This document shows positions 2,397-42,847 of a DNA stretch of 42,847 bases, piece by piece; the stretch's first letter is position 1; each line of letters begins with the position of its first letter. Position numbers and translations under genes: made by a program. The notes below the pieces were generated by a model, which saw only the letters and a program-made list of their open reading frames with translations, was not told the DNA's origin and made no database searches. Source of the stretch: a virus (lineage: Duplodnaviria; Heunggongvirae; Uroviricota; Caudoviricetes); IMG/VR virus record IMGVR_UViG_3300045988_015629. One strand, 5' to 3'.

Positions 2397-2478
2397 AGTC
2401 AGTATGTCCCCTGGACGTTGGAACCCGGGCCACCCGGATTTACATGTCAAGAATAAATTATTCCAACATACAAGGCAA

Positions 2479-2742
2479 CTATTCCAGAATATTCCTCACG
2501 TAATCCTGCAACATGAACACTTTAAGTCTCAGTTGCCGTACACATTCTGCGTTCTGGACGTCAATAGCTAAATCCTCGTCCGCGTCGCTACTTGGCGCCG
2601 CCAGTTTGCACGGCGGCTGCATCATCGTCGTATCCGGGGATGGAATTGGCGTTGGCGACGGCACGTGACTTGAGCTGCACGCGCTCAGGGTCAAAAGTGC
2701 ACACGCTGCGACCAGGCGTTTTAATGTACTTAACGACTTCAC
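2479..2742 (-). CDS. o-spanin (Rz1-like outer-membrane lipoprotein)
   Basis: Signal peptide with lipobox LTLSAC followed by a proline-rich segment; starts inside the Rz-like gene in another frame and extends past its stop. Confidence 0.6.
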   Translation of the reverse strand: MKSLSTLKRLVAACALLTLSACSSSHVPSPTPIPSPDTTMMQPPCKLAAPSSDADEDLAIDVQNAECVRQLRLKVFMLQDYVRNILE

Positions 2743-3144: not shown

Positions 3145-3235
3145 TCCGTTACCTGCCCGCGCCGCGGTCGCTTGTTCATACTTCACAAGCTCAGGTGGAG
3201 CTTAGCACATTTTTGGTGAAAAGTCAACTATTCGA
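3145..3235 (-). promoter_or_regulatory. conserved promoter-plus-leader element A (TTGACT-N17-TAAGCT, then a 38-nt core identical to element B containing a hairpin)
   Basis: -35 at 3222-3227 and -10 at 3199-3204 on the minus strand; core 3158-3195 is identical to 14005-14042. Confidence 0.55.
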
Positions 3236-3292
3236 ATAGTTTATTCCAACATTTACAATTGAGTGGAATAACTGGAATAGTCACAGGCACTA

Positions 3293-3778: not shown

Positions 3779-4854
3779 TAATCCCCTTTCAGATAATCAG
3801 CAACACGTTTATCGAGTTCCGCCATCTGCTTAAGCGTGAGCGGATTCCCGAAACCATCTACAGATATTACGCGAAACTCTTCCGGCGATATACCGCTGTT
3901 ACGGAAAATCTTACCTCGCACCGGGCCGAGCGCCTGGTCCTGAAACCACGCCGGTTGTTGTTTAAGGAACTCGTAGTAAGTGGTATCCGCGCTTACTTGC
4001 GTTCCGCCATCAGCACCTTTGGCAGCACGTTTTGCGCCTGCATCAAGGAAGTCGAACTCTGAGCTAATTACAGGTGCTGTGGTACTTCGACAATTCGGAT
4101 GGGCTGGCGGCGTAGGGCCTTTACCGATTTCCCATGTCATGCCATCTCTGGCCTTGCATATCGTGCTGGTACGGCTGTCCAGTGTTGACACCCATTCGTA
4201 TTTCTCGATGATGTCGCTGTTCTGCCGATAAGTCTCGTTGCGGGCTTCGTTAGATACGTGTGAAAGTGCGGTGCGGATTACGGTAGCGGCATTGCGCTCT
4301 GAGATGTCCGCCAGCCCGCCGGAGCCAACAACGCTCTTGATAATCTGCCGTGTTGTCTGGCCCTGTACAAACCCCATCTTAACGCCAGTTACTAGGCGCG
4401 ACACTTCTGTTTCACCCCAGCCTTCCATAAGTTTCGTGAAATCTGCTGGCTTGTCGCTTAAAGCCAGCGGTCGGAACACAGCGGCGGACCACACCTGCTC
4501 AGCGGTAGGGGTAACAAATTCCGTGTTAACGTTAGCCGCGAGTGTCTTCACATTCCACTCGGCCTCGTACGCCGCCAGTTCCTTAAGGTCTTCTGTCAGC
4601 TTCGTTTGCCAGTCACCGGTTAACCCGGTCAGTGCTTCTTCCAGGTCACGTAACAGTTTATTCAGTCGCGCAGTGCTGCGACCGTCGTCGCCGAATAGCA
4701 GCACCTGCCGTTTGATTTCATCCCGCATCTCCTGAATGAACGGCGCGAGGTCTTTCACCTCACCGGATGCGGTGCGTTGCAGCCATATCTGGTGGCTGAT
4801 TAGTGATGTAAGTAAGCTCATAGATAAACCCTGTGGCGCTAAAGTTAATAGCAT
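3778..4854 (-). CDS. head morphogenesis protein (Mu F / SPP1 gp7-like minor head protein)
   Basis: Conserved EWVSTLDSRTSTICKARDGMTW...PPAHPNCRST region typical of the Mu-F family; follows portal; true start may be the ATG at 4821. Confidence 0.75.
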   Translation of the reverse strand: MLLTLAPQGLSMSLLTSLISHQIWLQRTASGEVKDLAPFIQEMRDEIKRQVLLFGDDGRSTARLNKLLRDLEEALTGLTGDWQTKLTEDLKELAAYEAEWNVKTLAANVNTEFVTPTAEQVWSAAVFRPLALSDKPADFTKLMEGWGETEVSRLVTGVKMGFVQGQTTRQIIKSVVGSGGLADISERNAATVIRTALSHVSNEARNETYRQNSDIIEKYEWVSTLDSRTSTICKARDGMTWEIGKGPTPPAHPNCRSTTAPVISSEFDFLDAGAKRAAKGADGGTQVSADTTYYEFLKQQPAWFQDQALGPVRGKIFRNSGISPEEFRVISVDGFGNPLTLKQMAELDKRVADYLKGD

Positions 4855-4863
4855 ACTATAAGA

Positions 4864-9946: not shown

Positions 9947-9976
9947 AAATATAATTGGCGTAAGAGTAATAGTCAA
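9947..9976 (-). promoter_or_regulatory. sigma70-like promoter TTGACT-N17-TATATT for the 9.9-8.3 kb minus-strand genes
   Basis: Near-consensus hexamers with 17-bp spacing, read on the minus strand. Confidence 0.45.
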
Positions 9977-9994
9977 CTAGTCATTACAGAAAAC

Positions 9995-12444: not shown

Positions 12445-12480
12445 GTGTAAATGAATAGTAGCTTATTCTATCTTAGTGTG
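12445..12480 (-). promoter_or_regulatory. conserved early-type promoter, divergent copy (TTGCAC-N17-TACTAT with embedded GAATAG dyad)
   Basis: Related to the 36-bp elements at 13744-13779 and 35655-35690. Confidence 0.45.
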
Positions 12481-12490
12481 CAAGTAAATT

Positions 12491-13743: not shown

Positions 13744-13779
13744 AGTGAATAGTATCCTATTATGTTGGGGTGTGCAAGA
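13744..13779 (-). promoter_or_regulatory. conserved 36-bp early promoter element (minus-strand TTGCAC-N17-TACTAT; contains GAATAG-N4-CTATTA dyad)
   Basis: About 33/36 identical to 35655-35690 in the opposite orientation. Confidence 0.55.
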
Positions 13780-13822
13780 GAATAGTTACGTTGCCGTTGT
13801 GATTCTTTAGTTTAATGGGATA

Positions 13823-13880
13823 GCGAGCGAAACGAAACGAACGTGGTGCCGAAGGCACCAAGAGTGAGTGAGTGAGCTTG
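13823..13880. repeat. short tandem repeats flanking a hairpin: (CGAAA)2-3, GGTGCC-GAA-GGCACC, (GAGT)4
   Basis: Read directly; lies in the 457-bp divergent control region. Confidence 0.7.
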
Positions 13881-13989
13881 CGGATATAACCCACGGCAAA
13901 TCAGTAACTTAGATATTTAGGCGGGAATTACAATAGACTTTGGGCCTCCCAAACGCGCCAGCGAGCCTCACTCCACACGCTACACGTGC

Positions 13990-14080
13990 TCGTTTCGCCT
14001 GCCGCGCGCCGCGGTCGCTTGTTCATACTTCACAAGCTCAGGCTGAGCTTACCATATTTTTAAGTAAAAGTCAATACCGG
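13990..14080 (-). promoter_or_regulatory. conserved promoter-plus-leader element B (paralog of element A)
   Basis: -35 TTGACT at 14069-14074 and -10 TAAGCT at 14046-14051 on the minus strand; core 14005-14042 identical to 3158-3195. Confidence 0.55.
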
Positions 14081-14121: not shown

Positions 14122-14150
14122 TTGCTTTTACATTCCCGCTATCCTATACT
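14122..14150 (+). promoter_or_regulatory. sigma70-like promoter TTGCTT-N17-TATACT for the rightward replication operon
   Basis: Hexamers with 17-bp spacing about 35 bp upstream of the first plus-strand gene. Confidence 0.45.
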
Positions 14151-17285: not shown

Positions 17286-17357
17286 TGATATGTGAATAGT
17301 ACCATATTAATTATTTTAGAAAAGCCCATTGACAAGTGAATAGTTCGCTATTATAGT
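17286..17357. promoter_or_regulatory. divergent promoter/operator region: plus-strand TTGACA-N17-TATAGT at 17329-17357 and two GAATAG-N4-(C/A)TATTA dyads
   Basis: Dyads at about 17294-17309 and 17338-17353. Confidence 0.55.
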
Positions 17358-19477: not shown

Positions 19478-19506
19478 TTGACACCCGAATAGTTAGCTAT
19501 TATAGT
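19478..19506 (+). promoter_or_regulatory. conserved promoter TTGACA-N17-TATAGT with embedded GAATAG-N4-CTATTA dyad
   Basis: About 25/29 identical to the 17329-17357 promoter. Confidence 0.55.
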
Positions 19507-19559
19507 TCTAATCACTGGCCGGGCAGTTCCCGGAGTAAACTGAAAAGCGAGAAATCACG

Positions 19560-20203: not shown

Positions 20204-20232
20204 CTAAGGCCCTTCATTGGGCCTTTTTACTA
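20204..20232 (+). terminator. rho-independent terminator
   Basis: AAGGCCC-TTCATT-GGGCCTT followed by TTTT. Confidence 0.6.
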
Positions 20233-22628: not shown

Positions 22629-22916
22629 ATGAGTACGCCTGAGGGGCGCGTGCAGAAATACGCAAAAGAGCGATTCGAGGCCCTGGGAGGCCTCGTACGC
22701 AAATTGTCGTACGAAAATAGAGCGGGCGCCCCCGACCTGCTGGTAATTCTCCCTGGTGGCATCATCTGGTTCGTCGAGGTTAAGAAAGACGAAAACACGA
22801 AGCCGGACCCGCACCAGTTACGAGAGCACGAGCGGATGCGTAAACGTGGTGCAAATGTTTTTGTCGTTGGTTCGTTTAAACAGGTTGACGACCTAATAGC
22901 GGGCTATTATAGTTAA
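22629..22916 (+). CDS. VRR-NUC domain nuclease
   Basis: PDLLVIL...WFVEVKKD PD-(D/E)XK arrangement typical of VRR-NUC; 95 aa. Confidence 0.65.
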   Translation: MSTPEGRVQKYAKERFEALGGLVRKLSYENRAGAPDLLVILPGGIIWFVEVKKDENTKPDPHQLREHERMRKRGANVFVVGSFKQVDDLIAGYYS

Positions 22917-22946: not shown

Positions 22947-23138
22947 ATGAAACACGAATACGACCGCAAACCAGCACGTGACATCGTACCGGGTGACATG
23001 ATTTTCAACGTTAAGACACGTCAACCTGTTGCCGTTGATACGGTGTTCGTCGAGTCGAACGGTAAACTGGTTATCGAAGATGTAACGGGTAACGTTACGG
23101 CGTTCGGGCGTAAAGAGCTGGTGCTGGTGGCGAAATGA
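22947..23138 (+). CDS. hypothetical protein (63 aa)
   Basis: ORF with AAGGAA RBS. Confidence 0.4.
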   Translation: MKHEYDRKPARDIVPGDMIFNVKTRQPVAVDTVFVESNGKLVIEDVTGNVTAFGRKELVLVAK

Positions 23139-23959
23139 ACTATTACAACGAATGGGATAAAGGCGCAGCCGCGTGGCTGCGTGAATTAATAAAACATGGT
23201 CACATACCTTTTGGAGTTGTAGATGAAAGAAGCATTACCGAAGTTAAGCCAGAAGACCTTGACGGGTTCACCCAGTGTCATTTTTTCGCTGGTATCGGCG
23301 GCTGGCCTCTCGCGCTCAGACTTGCGGGAGTTTCGGAGGATACGCCTCTCTGGACGGGAAGCCCGCCTTGCCAACCGTTTAGCACGGCAGGAAAACAACT
23401 CGGACAGTTCGACCCGAGACACCTCGCGCCGGTCTTCCTCGACATCATCAGCGAGTGCCGCCCTCCAGTCATCTTTGGGGAGCAGGTTGCGGCAGCAATT
23501 GCAAAATCGTGGATGTGCGATTTACAAGCTCACCTGGAAGGAGAAGACTACGCCGTCGGGTTTGCTGTTCTCCCAGCTTGTAGCGTCGGCGCACCGCACA
23601 AAAGAGAACGACTCTTCTTTGGCGCGCACGAACTGGCCTACACCGACAGCGAACGACTTCAGAGGGAGCGGAGAGACAGTGATTCGCACGGACGGGAGGG
23701 ACAGAACATTCGACAGGCTGGACTACTCAACAGAGCAGGGATTGAAAGCGAGTCAACCAACCCGCACCACGGCTTCTGGTCAGATGCTGACTGGCTCGGA
23801 TGCCGTGATGGAAAGTTCCGGCCGGTTGAACCCGGCGCATTCCCGCTGGCTAATGGGATACCCGCAAGAGTGGGACGATTGCGCGGTTACGGCAATGCCA
23901 TCGTCCCGCAAGTAGCCGCTGAATTTATAAAGGCATTCATGGGGGCGGTAAATGAGTAA
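23135..23959 (+). CDS. DNA (cytosine-5)-methyltransferase, compact (274 aa)
   Basis: Motif I FFAGIGG, motif [10 protein letters not shown] (catalytic Cys), ENV-like FGEQV, motif [12 protein letters not shown], motif X-like GYGNAIVP. Confidence 0.8.
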
Positions 23960-25576: not shown

Positions 25577-25608
25577 AGAAAAGGCCCCGTTTGGGGCCTT
25601 AGTTTTAT
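25576..25608. terminator. bidirectional rho-independent terminator at the replication/tailspike convergence
   Basis: GGCCCCGTTTGGGGCC hairpin flanked by AGAAAA and TTAGTTTTA. Confidence 0.75.
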
Positions 25609-35647: not shown

Positions 35648-35690
35648 TTGCACACCCCAATATAATAGGGTACTATTCACTTACACCAAC
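35648..35690. promoter_or_regulatory. conserved 36-bp promoter element, divergent (plus-strand TTGCAC-N17-TACTAT for the island; minus-strand promoter for the chaperone/tape-measure operon)
   Basis: Reverse complement is about 33/36 identical to 13744-13779. Confidence 0.55.
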
Positions 35691-35935: not shown

Positions 35936-37066
35936 ATGGCCAGGAAGAAAATAACCGACGAACAGTTACAGGAAGAATTGAACGCCGGTATGAAGAATAT
36001 CGACATCGCCCGTAAATACGGCATCTCCGACCGCGTTATTCGTATCCGTAAAGCGAAGCTGGCTAAGAAAGGTGTAGGCCACGGGCGTGACGTTAGTTAC
36101 CTTGTACCGGACGGCTACAAGATTAAAGGAACGTCATCACTGGTGGATGAGTTTGGCAACACCAAGTTGCAATGGGTTAAGACCGACACCGATGCCGAAC
36201 GTCAGGTTGAATTGATGAAAGCCGTAATCGAAGGCATGAAGTCGGAGATTACACCAGTTGCACCTGTTAAAGCCGTTCGCGCCAAACGAGACGACAAGCT
36301 ACTCAACCTTTACACTGTGTCTGATTTCCATCTCGGTATGCTGGCCTGGGCTGACGAGAGCGGCGACGACTGGGACATGAAGATTGCGGAAGACCTGTTC
36401 TCCCGCTGGTTCGACGCAGCGTTCCAGAAAGCACCGGATGCCGGAACAGGAGTTATTAATCTGCTGGGCGACCTTGCGCATTTCGATAGTCTGGACGCCG
36501 TTACACCTGCCAGTGGTCATGTTCTTGACGCTGACACCCGCTATCAGAAACTTGTACGCTACATGATTCGTATGGTCCGCCGTGTCATTGATATGGCTCT
36601 CGTTAAACATAAAAATGTTCGCTTGCTTATCGTGCAAGGTAACCACGACGAAAGCGGAATGATTTGGTTAGCTGAGATGTTTAGTACGCTGTACGACAAT
36701 GAGCCGCGTGTGTTCGTCGATACGTCGCCGGATGTTTACAAGATGGTGCAACACGGCAAAACGACGCTGTTCTTCCATCATGGGCATAAAGCACGATTCG
36801 ACGCTATCGAACCGGTTATGATCGCCAAGTTCCGCAAAGCGTTCGGCGAGAGTGTTTACAGCTACGCCCACGTGGGTCACCTGCACCACCAAAAGATTGT
36901 AGAAAGCCGTAACATGATTGTTGAGCAACACCGCACTCTCGCGGCTAAAGATGCATATGCCTCCCGCGGTGGGTGGATGTCGGGCCGCAGTGCAAACGTA
37001 ATTACTTATAGCGCCGAATATGGCGAGGTCGCACGTTTAACTATTTCACCGGAGATGCTTGGATGA
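35936..37066 (+). CDS. calcineurin-like metallophosphoesterase with N-terminal HTH domain
   Basis: MPP motifs SDFHLG, LLGDLAHFD, VQGNHDE, FHHGHK, HVGHLHH; N-terminal 40 aa resemble a helix-turn-helix. Confidence 0.75.
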   Translation: MARKKITDEQLQEELNAGMKNIDIARKYGISDRVIRIRKAKLAKKGVGHGRDVSYLVPDGYKIKGTSSLVDEFGNTKLQWVKTDTDAERQVELMKAVIEGMKSEITPVAPVKAVRAKRDDKLLNLYTVSDFHLGMLAWADESGDDWDMKIAEDLFSRWFDAAFQKAPDAGTGVINLLGDLAHFDSLDAVTPASGHVLDADTRYQKLVRYMIRMVRRVIDMALVKHKNVRLLIVQGNHDESGMIWLAEMFSTLYDNEPRVFVDTSPDVYKMVQHGKTTLFFHHGHKARFDAIEPVMIAKFRKAFGESVYSYAHVGHLHHQKIVESRNMIVEQHRTLAAKDAYASRGGWMSGRSANVITYSAEYGEVARLTISPEMLG

Positions 37067-37548
37067 AAGATATTGTGATTTTCGATTTAGACGGGACATT
37101 GGCAGATGGTACTCATCGTTTACACCTGCTGCCGAAAGATAACTACGGCGAAACCTGGGCGTGGAAACCATTTAACATGGCGTGCAAAGACGATGCACCC
37201 ATTAAAGATAACATCGAACTGTGTAACGCCCTTAATCGTCGCTATGCCGTTATTATCTTAACAGGCCGTAGTGATGACGCGGAAAAAGAAACCAGAATGT
37301 GGTTGCAGCGCCACCGCGTCGAATTTTATCAGTTAATCATGCGCAGCAAACACGACAACAGAAAAGACATCGTAATTAAAGAAGAGGTGTTGCGTGCTAT
37401 TGGGCCGGAGAGAATCTTGTGTGCATTCGACGACTCTCCAGCGGTAATAAAGCATTTCCGCGAACTCGGCATAACCACTCACGCAGTTACTGAATACGAC
37501 TGTAACGGGAACTCTACACACTTAAAACCACATGGGAGTGATAAATAA
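37063..37548 (+). CDS. HAD-superfamily phosphatase
   Basis: Motif I FDLDGTL, motif II ILTGR, later K and FDDS acidic motifs. Confidence 0.75.
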   Translation: MKDIVIFDLDGTLADGTHRLHLLPKDNYGETWAWKPFNMACKDDAPIKDNIELCNALNRRYAVIILTGRSDDAEKETRMWLQRHRVEFYQLIMRSKHDNRKDIVIKEEVLRAIGPERILCAFDDSPAVIKHFRELGITTHAVTEYDCNGNSTHLKPHGSDK

Positions 37549-38102
37549 TGGCTAAGGTAATTATTCTTAATGGTCCTGCGGGCTGCGGGAAAGACACACT
37601 TGCTAGGGCGCTGGTAGAAATGGGCTTTGCGAAGGGTGTCGCCAGTTTCAAGAATCCGATGTTCAATATTGCTATGGCTGCGTTAGGCCAGGATGCTTAC
37701 CGCGAGTTTCTCGACGGCTACGACGACCGGGCGCGGAAAGAAAAGCCAGAGGGTTTCCTTAACGGGTTGTCTCGGCGTCAGTTCATGATTGCCATTTCCG
37801 AGCAATTCATTAAACCGGTGTTCGGTGATGATTATTTCGGTAAGTATCTTGCCGGAAACTTGCCCGACGGCGACGAAGTTTTTGTGGTGTCTGATGGCGG
37901 GTTCGCCAGCGAAGTAGCCCCTATCGTTGCCGCGGGGCATGATGTGAGAATCGTCCGCTTGCACAGAGACGGCCATACGTTTGAAGGGGACAGCCGCGGT
38001 TACCTGTACGATATTGATGGTGTAAAAGATTATGACACCTACATCATACCGGGTTACGTTAAATCGAACGCTATAGGCATTGCTTTAAGATTAGGTTTGT
38101 AA
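37548..38102 (+). CDS. P-loop nucleotide/polynucleotide kinase (dNMP-kinase-like)
   Basis: N-terminal Walker A VIILNGPAGCGKDT; the GKDT variant is reminiscent of phage dNMP kinases. Confidence 0.7.
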   Translation: MAKVIILNGPAGCGKDTLARALVEMGFAKGVASFKNPMFNIAMAALGQDAYREFLDGYDDRARKEKPEGFLNGLSRRQFMIAISEQFIKPVFGDDYFGKYLAGNLPDGDEVFVVSDGGFASEVAPIVAAGHDVRIVRLHRDGHTFEGDSRGYLYDIDGVKDYDTYIIPGYVKSNAIGIALRLGL

Positions 38103-38133
38103 GAAAAAGGCCCCAAACGGGGCCTTAGTTTTA
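38103..38133. terminator. bidirectional rho-independent terminator at the island/major-tail convergence
   Basis: GGCCCCAAACGGGGCC hairpin flanked by AAGAAAAA and TTAGTTTTA; same stem as the 25576-25608 terminator. Confidence 0.75.
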
Positions 38134-42712: not shown

Positions 42713-42847
42713 TTAAGATACAATTGCTCCGGTGCTGCTGGAGATAATATTACCGTATACATCGTGGACAACCACTTTATACGTACCGGAATCGGTAGTA
42801 GCGAGCGAAGTTTTCTCGTAGGTGGCGGCGGTAGCGCCTGGGATAGC
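42713..42847 (-). CDS. Ig-like domain virion protein, C-terminal part of the junction-spanning gene (see 1..271)
   Basis: Frame continuous with 1..271 across the terminal overlap; stop codon at 42713-42715. Confidence 0.6.
   Translation of the reverse strand, partial: AIPGATAATYEKTSLATTDSGTYKVVVHDVYGNIISSSTGAIVS
42793..42847. repeat. 55-bp exact terminal direct repeat (identical to 1-55)
   Basis: Direct comparison of the first and last 55 nt. Confidence 0.95.

Follow-up and report, generated by a model that had tools for sequence, protein, structure and literature searches.

A recurrent operator-like palindrome on the sigma-70 promoters of a Kagunavirus genome and its probable reader, a 434-Cro-like regulator

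A palindrome of 14-16 bp with the consensus (G/T)AATAG-N4-CTATT(A/C) recurs on at least seven host-type promoters of the phage genome analysed here, a stretch of 42,847 bases that we call the window. Judged on sequence and comparative evidence, this dyad is very probably an operator on host sigma-70 promoters, and the protein that binds it is probably the 71-aa XRE regulator encoded in the window. An operator laid over sigma-70 promoter cores and bound by a dimer of this 434-Cro-like protein is the most likely overall reading. An earlier note on this DNA had proposed an operator for a dimeric phage DNA-binding protein. The enrichment of the repeat, its confinement to promoters, the conservation of its half-sites, its presence at orthologous promoters and its variants in other lineages all argue for that proposal, but the apparent regulon is larger than was listed, a third candidate binder has to be considered and the repeat had already been published.

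The window is a complete, circularly assembled Kagunavirus genome (Guernseyvirinae). Bases 1-55 are identical to bases 42793-42847, an overlap left by the circularising assembly, and the cut lies inside a head-decoration/Ig-like gene. The genome is ~97% identical to Escherichia Kagunavirus phages (e.g. MirsaeidiM_Esher4 and fTaEco03), has the gene order of the annotated relative Snoke and encodes a K1 endosialidase tailspike; it is a lytic siphovirus of E. coli K1, and its relatives are described as strictly lytic. Among the window's genes and in Pfam scans, we found neither a cI-type partner repressor with a cleavable C-terminal domain nor an integration module. Pfam scans of all the large proteins and of 33 small ones returned no RNA polymerase or sigma family, the sole sigma-related match being a sub-threshold Sigma70_r4 hit on an HTH_17 protein (16 bits against a cutoff of 24). 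Three recognisable DNA-binding proteins are encoded: the XRE regulator (HTH_3), the HTH_17 protein and a NinH-like protein. The genes for a C5-cytosine DNA methylase (23135-23959), a PNKP-like phosphatase (37063-37548) and an AAA_18 protein (37548-38102) gave no hit when Snoke, Ent3, Tsm2 and SE1 were searched by tblastn, and look like accessory cargo inserted in conserved operons.

To rank inverted repeats without preselecting a motif, every 5-mer inverted repeat with a gap of 0-12 was scored across the genome. AATAG-N4-CTATT ranked first, with five exact copies where 0.02 were expected; the runners-up were GC-rich terminator stems. The entries AAGGC-N10-GCCTT and GCCCC-N4-GGGGC appear in this ranking because a bidirectional terminator cassette, AAAAGGCCCC-N4-GGGGCCTTAGTTTTAT, is reused at 25581-25600 and 38107-38126 (with a related copy at 20206), where convergent operons meet. 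A search for GAATAG-N4-CTATTA, the form in which the earlier note had reported the dyad, gave 21 strand-matches at 13 loci when up to two mismatches were allowed, with 2.3 expected and a maximum of 7 in 100 shuffles. The six dyads already listed are all present, although the last lies at 35663-35678, one base from where it had been placed; likewise, the abutted palindrome CTATTCGAATAG exists but occupies 3228-3239 rather than 3229-3240.

The non-coding fraction, computed from a curated gene map, is 7.2% of the genome, yet it contains 11 of the 13 dyad loci (binomial P = 2e-11) and 10 of the 21 copies of GAATAG. That all copies are intergenic, as had been claimed, does not hold: the promoter at 22885-22913 is situated within the VRR-NUC ORF, at its 3' end. 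All good copies overlap promoters of the sigma-70 type that are directed towards the genes behind them, and the dyad centres fall in three fixed registers (-18.5, -12.5 and -33.5), each of which overlaps core promoter elements, as would be expected of an occluding operator.

These registers define three promoter classes (Table 1). Class 1 consists of TTGAC(A/G)-N3-dyad running into TATAGT, centred at -18.5, and starts at 17329, 19478 and 22885 on the plus strand; its members drive the nuclease, SSB/DNA polymerase and helicase operons. When a 10.8-kb stretch was scanned for sigma-70 matches (scored out of 12), class-1 promoters were the only ones to reach at least 10, and those at 17329-17357 and 19478-19506 were the best; these two are identical at 25 of 29 positions, exactly as reported before. 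Class 2 consists of TTGCAC-N9-dyad, centred at -12.5, in which the right half-site supplies the -10 element TACTAT, and serves small early/accessory genes. Its elements begin at TTGCAC at 35648 (+), 13777 (-) and 12483 (-), with pairwise identities of 34/36, 28/36 and 27/36. This is the 36-bp TTGCAC-N17-TACTAT element of the earlier note, which is real, but the two intervals given for it (13744-13779 and 35655-35690) are out of register with each other by ~9 bp. We rejected an alternative class-2 -10 element (TATAAT in the left half-site, with ATCACA as the -35; 10/12 by eye at 35648), which is not kept at the other copies, whereas TTGC at the fixed distance is.

The XRE gene's own promoter is also of the class-2 type and carries an imperfect dyad (O2), which on the minus strand reads TAATATGGTACTATTC. 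In Kagunavirus, a TGn extended -10 (TGgTACTAT at 17304..17296) replaces the -35; the equivalent position in Jerseyvirus reads TTGCGT-N17-TACTAT. An alternative XRE promoter, TTCACT-16-TAAAAT (17340..17313), overlaps the neighbouring strong operator, O1, which lies 44 bp from O2, centre to centre. O1 is kept in Snoke and, with one mismatch, in Jerseyvirus.

The two promoter classes recognised previously are thus both present, but there is also a third register, with the dyad placed on the -35 (GACTAG-TTGA-CTATTA; centre -33.5), and the sites number at least ten, late promoters included. Class-3 promoters, at 9976, 3227 and 2478 on the minus strand, precede packaging and head genes, and their dyad copies are imperfect. 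The dyad of the 9948..9982 promoter is kept in 29 Kagunavirus and 9 Jerseyvirus sequence contexts, with one ACTAG half every time, and the orthologue of the scaffold/capsid promoter in Serratia phage Tsm2 carries a full dyad, AATAGTGCGCTATA. The sites added here are the third class-1 promoter (22885-22913), the dyads over -35 elements (9967-9982, 3218-3233 and 2469-2484) and a weak copy at 4846-4861. Two promoters are free of the dyad: that of the HTH_17/primase operon (14122-14150) and a divergent one at 14074-14046.

Table 1. Candidate operators, the promoters that carry them and the genes of the proteins considered as binders
Feature	Position	Strand	Details
Operator O1, GAATAGTTCGCTATTA	17338..17353		Strong, exact match; in spacer and -10 of the rightward class-1 promoter; centre -18.5
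Class-1 promoter, TTGACA-N17-TATAGT	17329..17357	+	Score 11/12; drives 17389.. (13.88-kDa-like protein, hypothetical protein, DUF2800 nuclease)
Operator O2, GAATAGTACCATATTA	17294..17309		Weaker, one mismatch; over the XRE gene's promoter
Class-1 promoter, dyad 19487-19502	19478..19506	+	Score 11/12; drives SSB and DNA polymerase
Class-1 promoter, dyad 22894-22909, TAATAGCGGGCTATTA	22885..22913	+	Only perfect palindrome (TAATAGC-GG-GCTATTA); drives 63-aa protein, C5-methylase, SNF2 helicase
Class-2 promoter, TTGCAC-N17-TACTAT, dyad 35663-35678	35648..35678	+	Centre -12.5; drives superinfection-immunity and phosphoesterase genes
Class-2 promoter (13777..13749), dyad 13747-13762	13747..13777	-	34/36 identical to the 35648 copy; drives leftward small-early-gene operon
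Class-2 promoter (12483..12455), diverged dyad 12453-12468	12453..12483	-	Dyad reads GAATAAGCTACTATTC on the minus strand
Class-3 promoter, TTGACT-N17-TATATT, dyad GACTAGTTGACTATTA over -35	9948..9982	-	Centre -33.5; after the lysis-cassette terminator; drives small genes, terminase, portal
Class-3 promoter, TTGACT-N17-TAAGCT, partial dyad GAATAGTTGACTTTTC (3218-3233) and abutted CTATTCGAATAG (3228-3239)	3199..3239	-	Drives spanin, scaffold and capsid genes
Scaffold/capsid promoter, TTGCCT-N17-TATTCT	2450..2484	-	GAATAG half-site abuts the -35
Weak copy, TTATAGTATGCTATTA	4846..4861	-	After the portal terminator, upstream of head-morphogenesis gene; kept in Snoke and SS3e
HTH_17 (excisionase/MerR-like) protein, 60 aa	14182..14364	+	Pfam HTH_17, E = 2e-8; own promoter TTGCTT-N17-TATACT (14122-14150) without dyad
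63-aa all-beta protein, SH3/Tudor-like fold	22947..23138	+	Distribution matches the AATAG dyad
XRE/434-Cro-like regulator, 71 aa	17049..17264	-	Pfam HTH_3; favoured candidate binder

Several other elements lie at or near these promoters. On the minus strand, the dyad at 35663-35678 falls within the spacer of a TTGGTG-N19-TATATT element that faces the tail-assembly operon (35539 leftward), and may be one operator serving two divergent promoters. A repeat of ~76 bp (3152-3227 and 13998-14074), probably the 'element A' of the earlier note, reads TTGACT-N17-TAAGCT and then the hairpin AGCTCAGCCTGAGCT on the minus strand; the 3227 copy has a GAATAG half-site and the 14074 copy none, the latter forming a dyad-free divergent pair with the HTH_17 promoter. 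Both head-gene promoters also carry a second inverted repeat, GAATA-N3-TATTC inside TGTTGGAATAAnnTATTC (2451-2463 and 3234-3246), which is among the top dyads of Snoke (6382 and 7171) and SS3e (5923 and 6679) too; its spacing is unlike that of the main operator and it may be a separate late-promoter element. The mRNA leaders that follow the SSB and scaffold promoters each contain a hairpin close to the promoter (CACTGGCCGGGCAGTTCCCGGAG at 19507-19545 and CCGGGTGGCCCGG at ~2425-2450, respectively); both hairpins are kept in all lineages, even where the operator has changed (orthologues in loci L002, L003, L004, L058, L060 and L074); they may be processing or stability signals. Finally, ~260 bp between the early divergent promoters (13780-14045) hold short tandem motifs (CGAAACGAAACGAAC and GAGTGAGTGAGTGAG) and no convincing ORF; the corresponding part of SE1 (L003 3751-4111) is a G-rich repeat region.

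To compare the promoters base by base, we extracted SSB promoters by their -35 and the conserved downstream hairpin, ignoring the dyad, which gave 17 unique sequences from Kagunavirus, Jerseyvirus and Tsm2. The AATAG/CTAT columns show 0-1 departures, as few as the hexamers, against 3-8 for the central 4 bp and 3-6 for the 3 bp that follow the -35. Since nothing about a sigma-70 spacer in itself calls for conservation, constancy of this kind is the pattern expected of dimer half-sites. This dyad also heads the ranking of inverted repeats in Snoke (seven copies), Ent3 (four) and SS3e (three), and it occurs at orthologous promoters in Tsm2.

This pattern bears on whether the repeats are simply copies of a duplicated promoter-plus-leader cassette, in which the palindrome would have no function of its own. 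The two most similar class-2 copies do share 34 of 36 bases, and the leaders have the CGAGAGGAGAG ribosome-binding region in common. Within promoters, however, only the hexamers and half-sites stay constant while neighbouring bases drift; the dyad is embedded in three promoter frameworks that are otherwise unrelated; and it predates the split between Kagunavirus, Jerseyvirus and Tsm2, all of which have kept it. We regard mere duplication as scarcely credible. An RNA element was also rejected: Rfam gave no match in the window and every dyad precedes the predicted start of transcription, so that the element acts at the DNA level. MerR-type activation through the spacer was rejected because the spacers are of the optimal 17 bp and not over-long at 19-20 bp; the HTH_17 protein is only 60 aa long and its MerR_1 match is below threshold.

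The repeat has been described before under a different label. The fBC-Eco01 paper lists seven 'phage RNA polymerase' promoters found with PHIRE, with the consensus tgAATAGTa-ccTATTat-T (PMC9825357), and the Golestan paper tabulates seven 20-mers, both XRE-flanking copies included (PMC7203180, Table S4); the copy at 4846..4861 corresponds to PHIRE site 1 of the latter. These are the same sites as the dyads described here, and neither paper mentions the palindrome, the three registers or a link to a Cro-like protein. The published interpretation, that the dyad is part of a phage-specific promoter read directly by an RNA polymerase, draws on the recovery of a conserved 20-mer in both phages, and it would accommodate a right half-site that supplies the -10 in class 2 and abuts it in class 1. 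The attribution to a polymerase nevertheless fails because the genomes encode no such gene: in the window the large ORFs are all assigned to other functions, no sigma factor is present either, and the DNA-binding domains of the small proteins are HTH_3, HTH_17 and NinH only. The dyad is, moreover, palindromic and placed in three registers relative to the hexamers, not asymmetric at one fixed distance, and SSB promoters of one lineage (group D, below) hold their -35 and -10 without any dyad. Promoters for a phage polymerase were rejected on the missing polymerase and sigma genes, and we consider direct reading by a polymerase highly improbable. A 1997 report on the Jersey-like phage MB78 is said to have described a promoter without a -35 that was bound by a phage-specific factor.

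To follow the dyad and its candidate readers across lineages, we collected 80 further loci through XRE alignment and grouped them by XRE recognition helix. Kagunavirus (SQGAINQ), Jerseyvirus (SQSLITH) and Tsm2 (SQGMLNH) all have the AATAG dyad. In group H (TQGGIGH) the sites number four and read AATAC-N4-GTAT(T/A), and two of these flank the XRE gene. Three promoters of group G (SQGYISH), the SSB orthologue among them, carry ATTAGC-N2-GCTAAA, and five promoters of group C carry mixed AATA[G/C] sites. Dyads are few or degraded in groups D, E and F; the SSB orthologues of group D retain the -35 and -10 with the dyad absent, and searching groups D and E for dyads de novo gave no clear replacement operator. 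XRE recognition helices thus differ among lineages with differing dyads. Long cI-like homologues returned by the XRE search sit in unrelated contigs without the dyad.

The XRE regulator matches PF01381 (HTH_3) with E = 9.7e-12 (45 bits against a cutoff of 23). Its best PDB match is 434 Cro (1zug/3cro; 71 aa, E = 1.8e-6), aligned over residues 6-68 of 71, and 434 repressor and P22 C2 are also matched. Dimers of 434 Cro bind operators of 14 bp, which is also the length of AATAG-N4-CTATT, with its conserved half-sites and unconserved centre. A homologue of XRE is present in each of the 86 loci examined, and XRE is the sole recognisable sequence-specific DNA-binding protein common to all lineages. 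Two dyads flank its gene in Kagunavirus, Jerseyvirus (imperfectly) and group H; in Tsm2 the dyad at the XRE-adjacent promoter is poor, with mismatches at 3 of the 10 core positions. Between Kagunavirus and Jerseyvirus, XRE is only ~50% identical and its helix residues differ, while the half-site is identical; by this measure the HTH_17 protein (84%) and a 63-aa protein (98%) follow operator constancy better than XRE does.

The earlier note had named XRE and the HTH_17 protein as candidate binders, and the comparison favours the first and disfavours the second. That the operator is instead read by the early HTH_17 protein, with XRE doing something else, seems unlikely to us. The protein carries an HTH domain, is better conserved than XRE between two genera with the same AATAG operator and is limited to exactly these two genera, in which the dyads are densest; it is also expressed early in RNA-seq of phage K1B4, and the lack of a dyad on its own promoter is what would be expected of a first-expressed regulator. 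Against this, group C has no HTH_17 and Tsm2 has no homologue by tblastn (to E = 10) or by Pfam scan of its 29 small proteins, which returned only a Cro-type HTH and one weak HTH_38 match, yet both keep AATAG-type dyads at their promoters. No dyad lies near the HTH_17 gene, and the usual targets of HTH_17/Xis-type proteins are direct repeats, bound by monomers, and not palindromes of 14 bp.

A third candidate is a phage protein without a recognisable DNA-binding domain, most obviously the 63-aa beta-barrel protein, whose gene ends with a stop codon overlapping the SNF2 helicase start and which has six cluster representatives only among 1.8 billion proteins. It is found in Kagunavirus (32/37), Jerseyvirus (12/12) and Tsm2, and is absent from groups C-H even though the flanking genes are present; in an unbiased phyletic profile of ~50 genes it alone matched the canonical AATAG dyad. 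It is also nearly invariant between Kagunavirus and Jerseyvirus, and its gene lies directly behind the window's best operator, where autoregulation would fit. Its fold is SH3/Tudor-like, however, and group C has dyads without it; we judge such a binder very unlikely. Were this SH3/Tudor-like protein the true reader, it would be a new kind of palindrome-reading repressor, a bolder proposal that we rate below the temporal-switch model considered below. As a separate observation, the region upstream of the helicase in Tsm2 and in groups C, D and F (L004, spanning the record ends; L058; L060; L003) contains the gene of a small basic-tailed zinc-ribbon protein (CxxC...CxxC), which Kagunavirus and Jerseyvirus lack.

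A host regulator might also bind, TrpR being possible. TrpR operators, which we take to be ACTAG-N4-CTAGT, have the same 5-N4-5 layout as the dyad, and the class-3 sites combine an ACTAG with a CTATT half in Kagunavirus and Jerseyvirus alike. The window has no full ACTAG-N4-CTAGT site, however; the canonical dyads depart from the TrpR core CTAG in each half; and half-sites that vary by phage lineage (AATAC, ATTAGC) are more readily explained by a phage factor that co-evolves with them than by a host protein that is conserved. Binding by a host protein is therefore a remote prospect, and XRE remains the probable binder.

If XRE does bind as proposed, each recognition helix of the dimer would contact one AATAG half-site and the central 4 bp would not be read base by base. 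Protein bound at -18.5 (the three replication-gene promoters), at -12.5 (the three early/accessory promoters and that of XRE) or at -33.5 (the late promoters) would block RNA polymerase. The near-consensus promoters would fire on phage entry; XRE would build up from its own weaker promoter and then repress the early and replication promoters, which have the best operators, while restricting its own synthesis through the imperfect O2. Least sensitive to XRE would be the late promoters, whose sites over the -35 are imperfect. The presence of operators on late promoters at all is not explained by a simple model in which early genes are shut off. A more ambitious possibility, which we consider quite unlikely, is that the Cro-fold dimer constitutes the entire temporal switch: it would repress at -12.5 and -18.5 and aid RNA polymerase at the hybrid ACTAG/CTATT sites at -33.5, the half-site drifting (AATAG, AATAC, ATTAGC) with the helix. 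RNA-seq of K1B4, whose XRE is 97% identical, places HTH_17 (gene 008) early, XRE (gene 004) in the middle class and some genes under dyad promoters (DNA polymerase and the immunity gene) late, which speaks against the model; sampling ran to 120 min and probably spanned several rounds of infection, and these temporal classes are too coarse for testing the model.

Few phages are isolated more often for therapy and food safety than Kagunaviruses and Jerseyviruses. Their gene regulation is essentially undescribed, and a search of the literature found no experimental work on this regulator. Reading the repeat as an operator provides a testable regulatory map, stating which promoters are controlled and by which protein. 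It would also explain why strictly lytic phages conserve a 'repressor' gene, which matters where such genes flag a temperate lifestyle in therapeutic screening. The lineage variants of the operator and the diverged XRE helices together form a small natural series for changes in HTH specificity.

The closest known parallel is 434 Cro, to which the single-domain HTH_3 regulator aligns end to end and whose operators are likewise 14-bp palindromes with conserved outer bases and a variable centre. As at a lambdoid OR, the putative operators overlap divergent promoters beside the regulator gene and are graded in quality, including a weaker site that may be autoregulatory. The half-site is AATAG here and ACAA in 434, and two operators flank the gene rather than three. 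There is, furthermore, no cI partner, integrase or lysogeny in this system, and in place of a single control region the operators are spread over at least ten promoters genome-wide, late ones too. XRE would presumably act as Cro does when lambdoid phages grow lytically, only on sites throughout the genome and with no cI counterpart.

A second parallel is p4 of phi29, also a small dimeric regulator of a strictly lytic phage, with inverted repeats at several promoters for host RNA polymerase and an early-to-late pattern. p4 has another fold, binds upstream of promoters, works with p6, and both represses and activates, whereas here the positions are occluding only and nothing points to activation; an early-to-late switch like that of phi29 p4, but on a 434-Cro scaffold, would be a form of the reading in which XRE activates at -33.5. 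The stoperators of Cluster A mycobacteriophages resemble the present sites in that one repressor's sites are dispersed in many copies through the genome. They are, however, 13 bp long, asymmetric, orientation-dependent, mostly in transcribed regions and part of temperate immunity, while the sites here are symmetric and lie on promoter cores in a lytic phage. Set beside these systems, the repeat is best described as a conserved operator regulon of an ordinary kind, with a probable Cro/XRE-type repressor in a lytic phage and a motif already published under another label, and it calls for no new principle.
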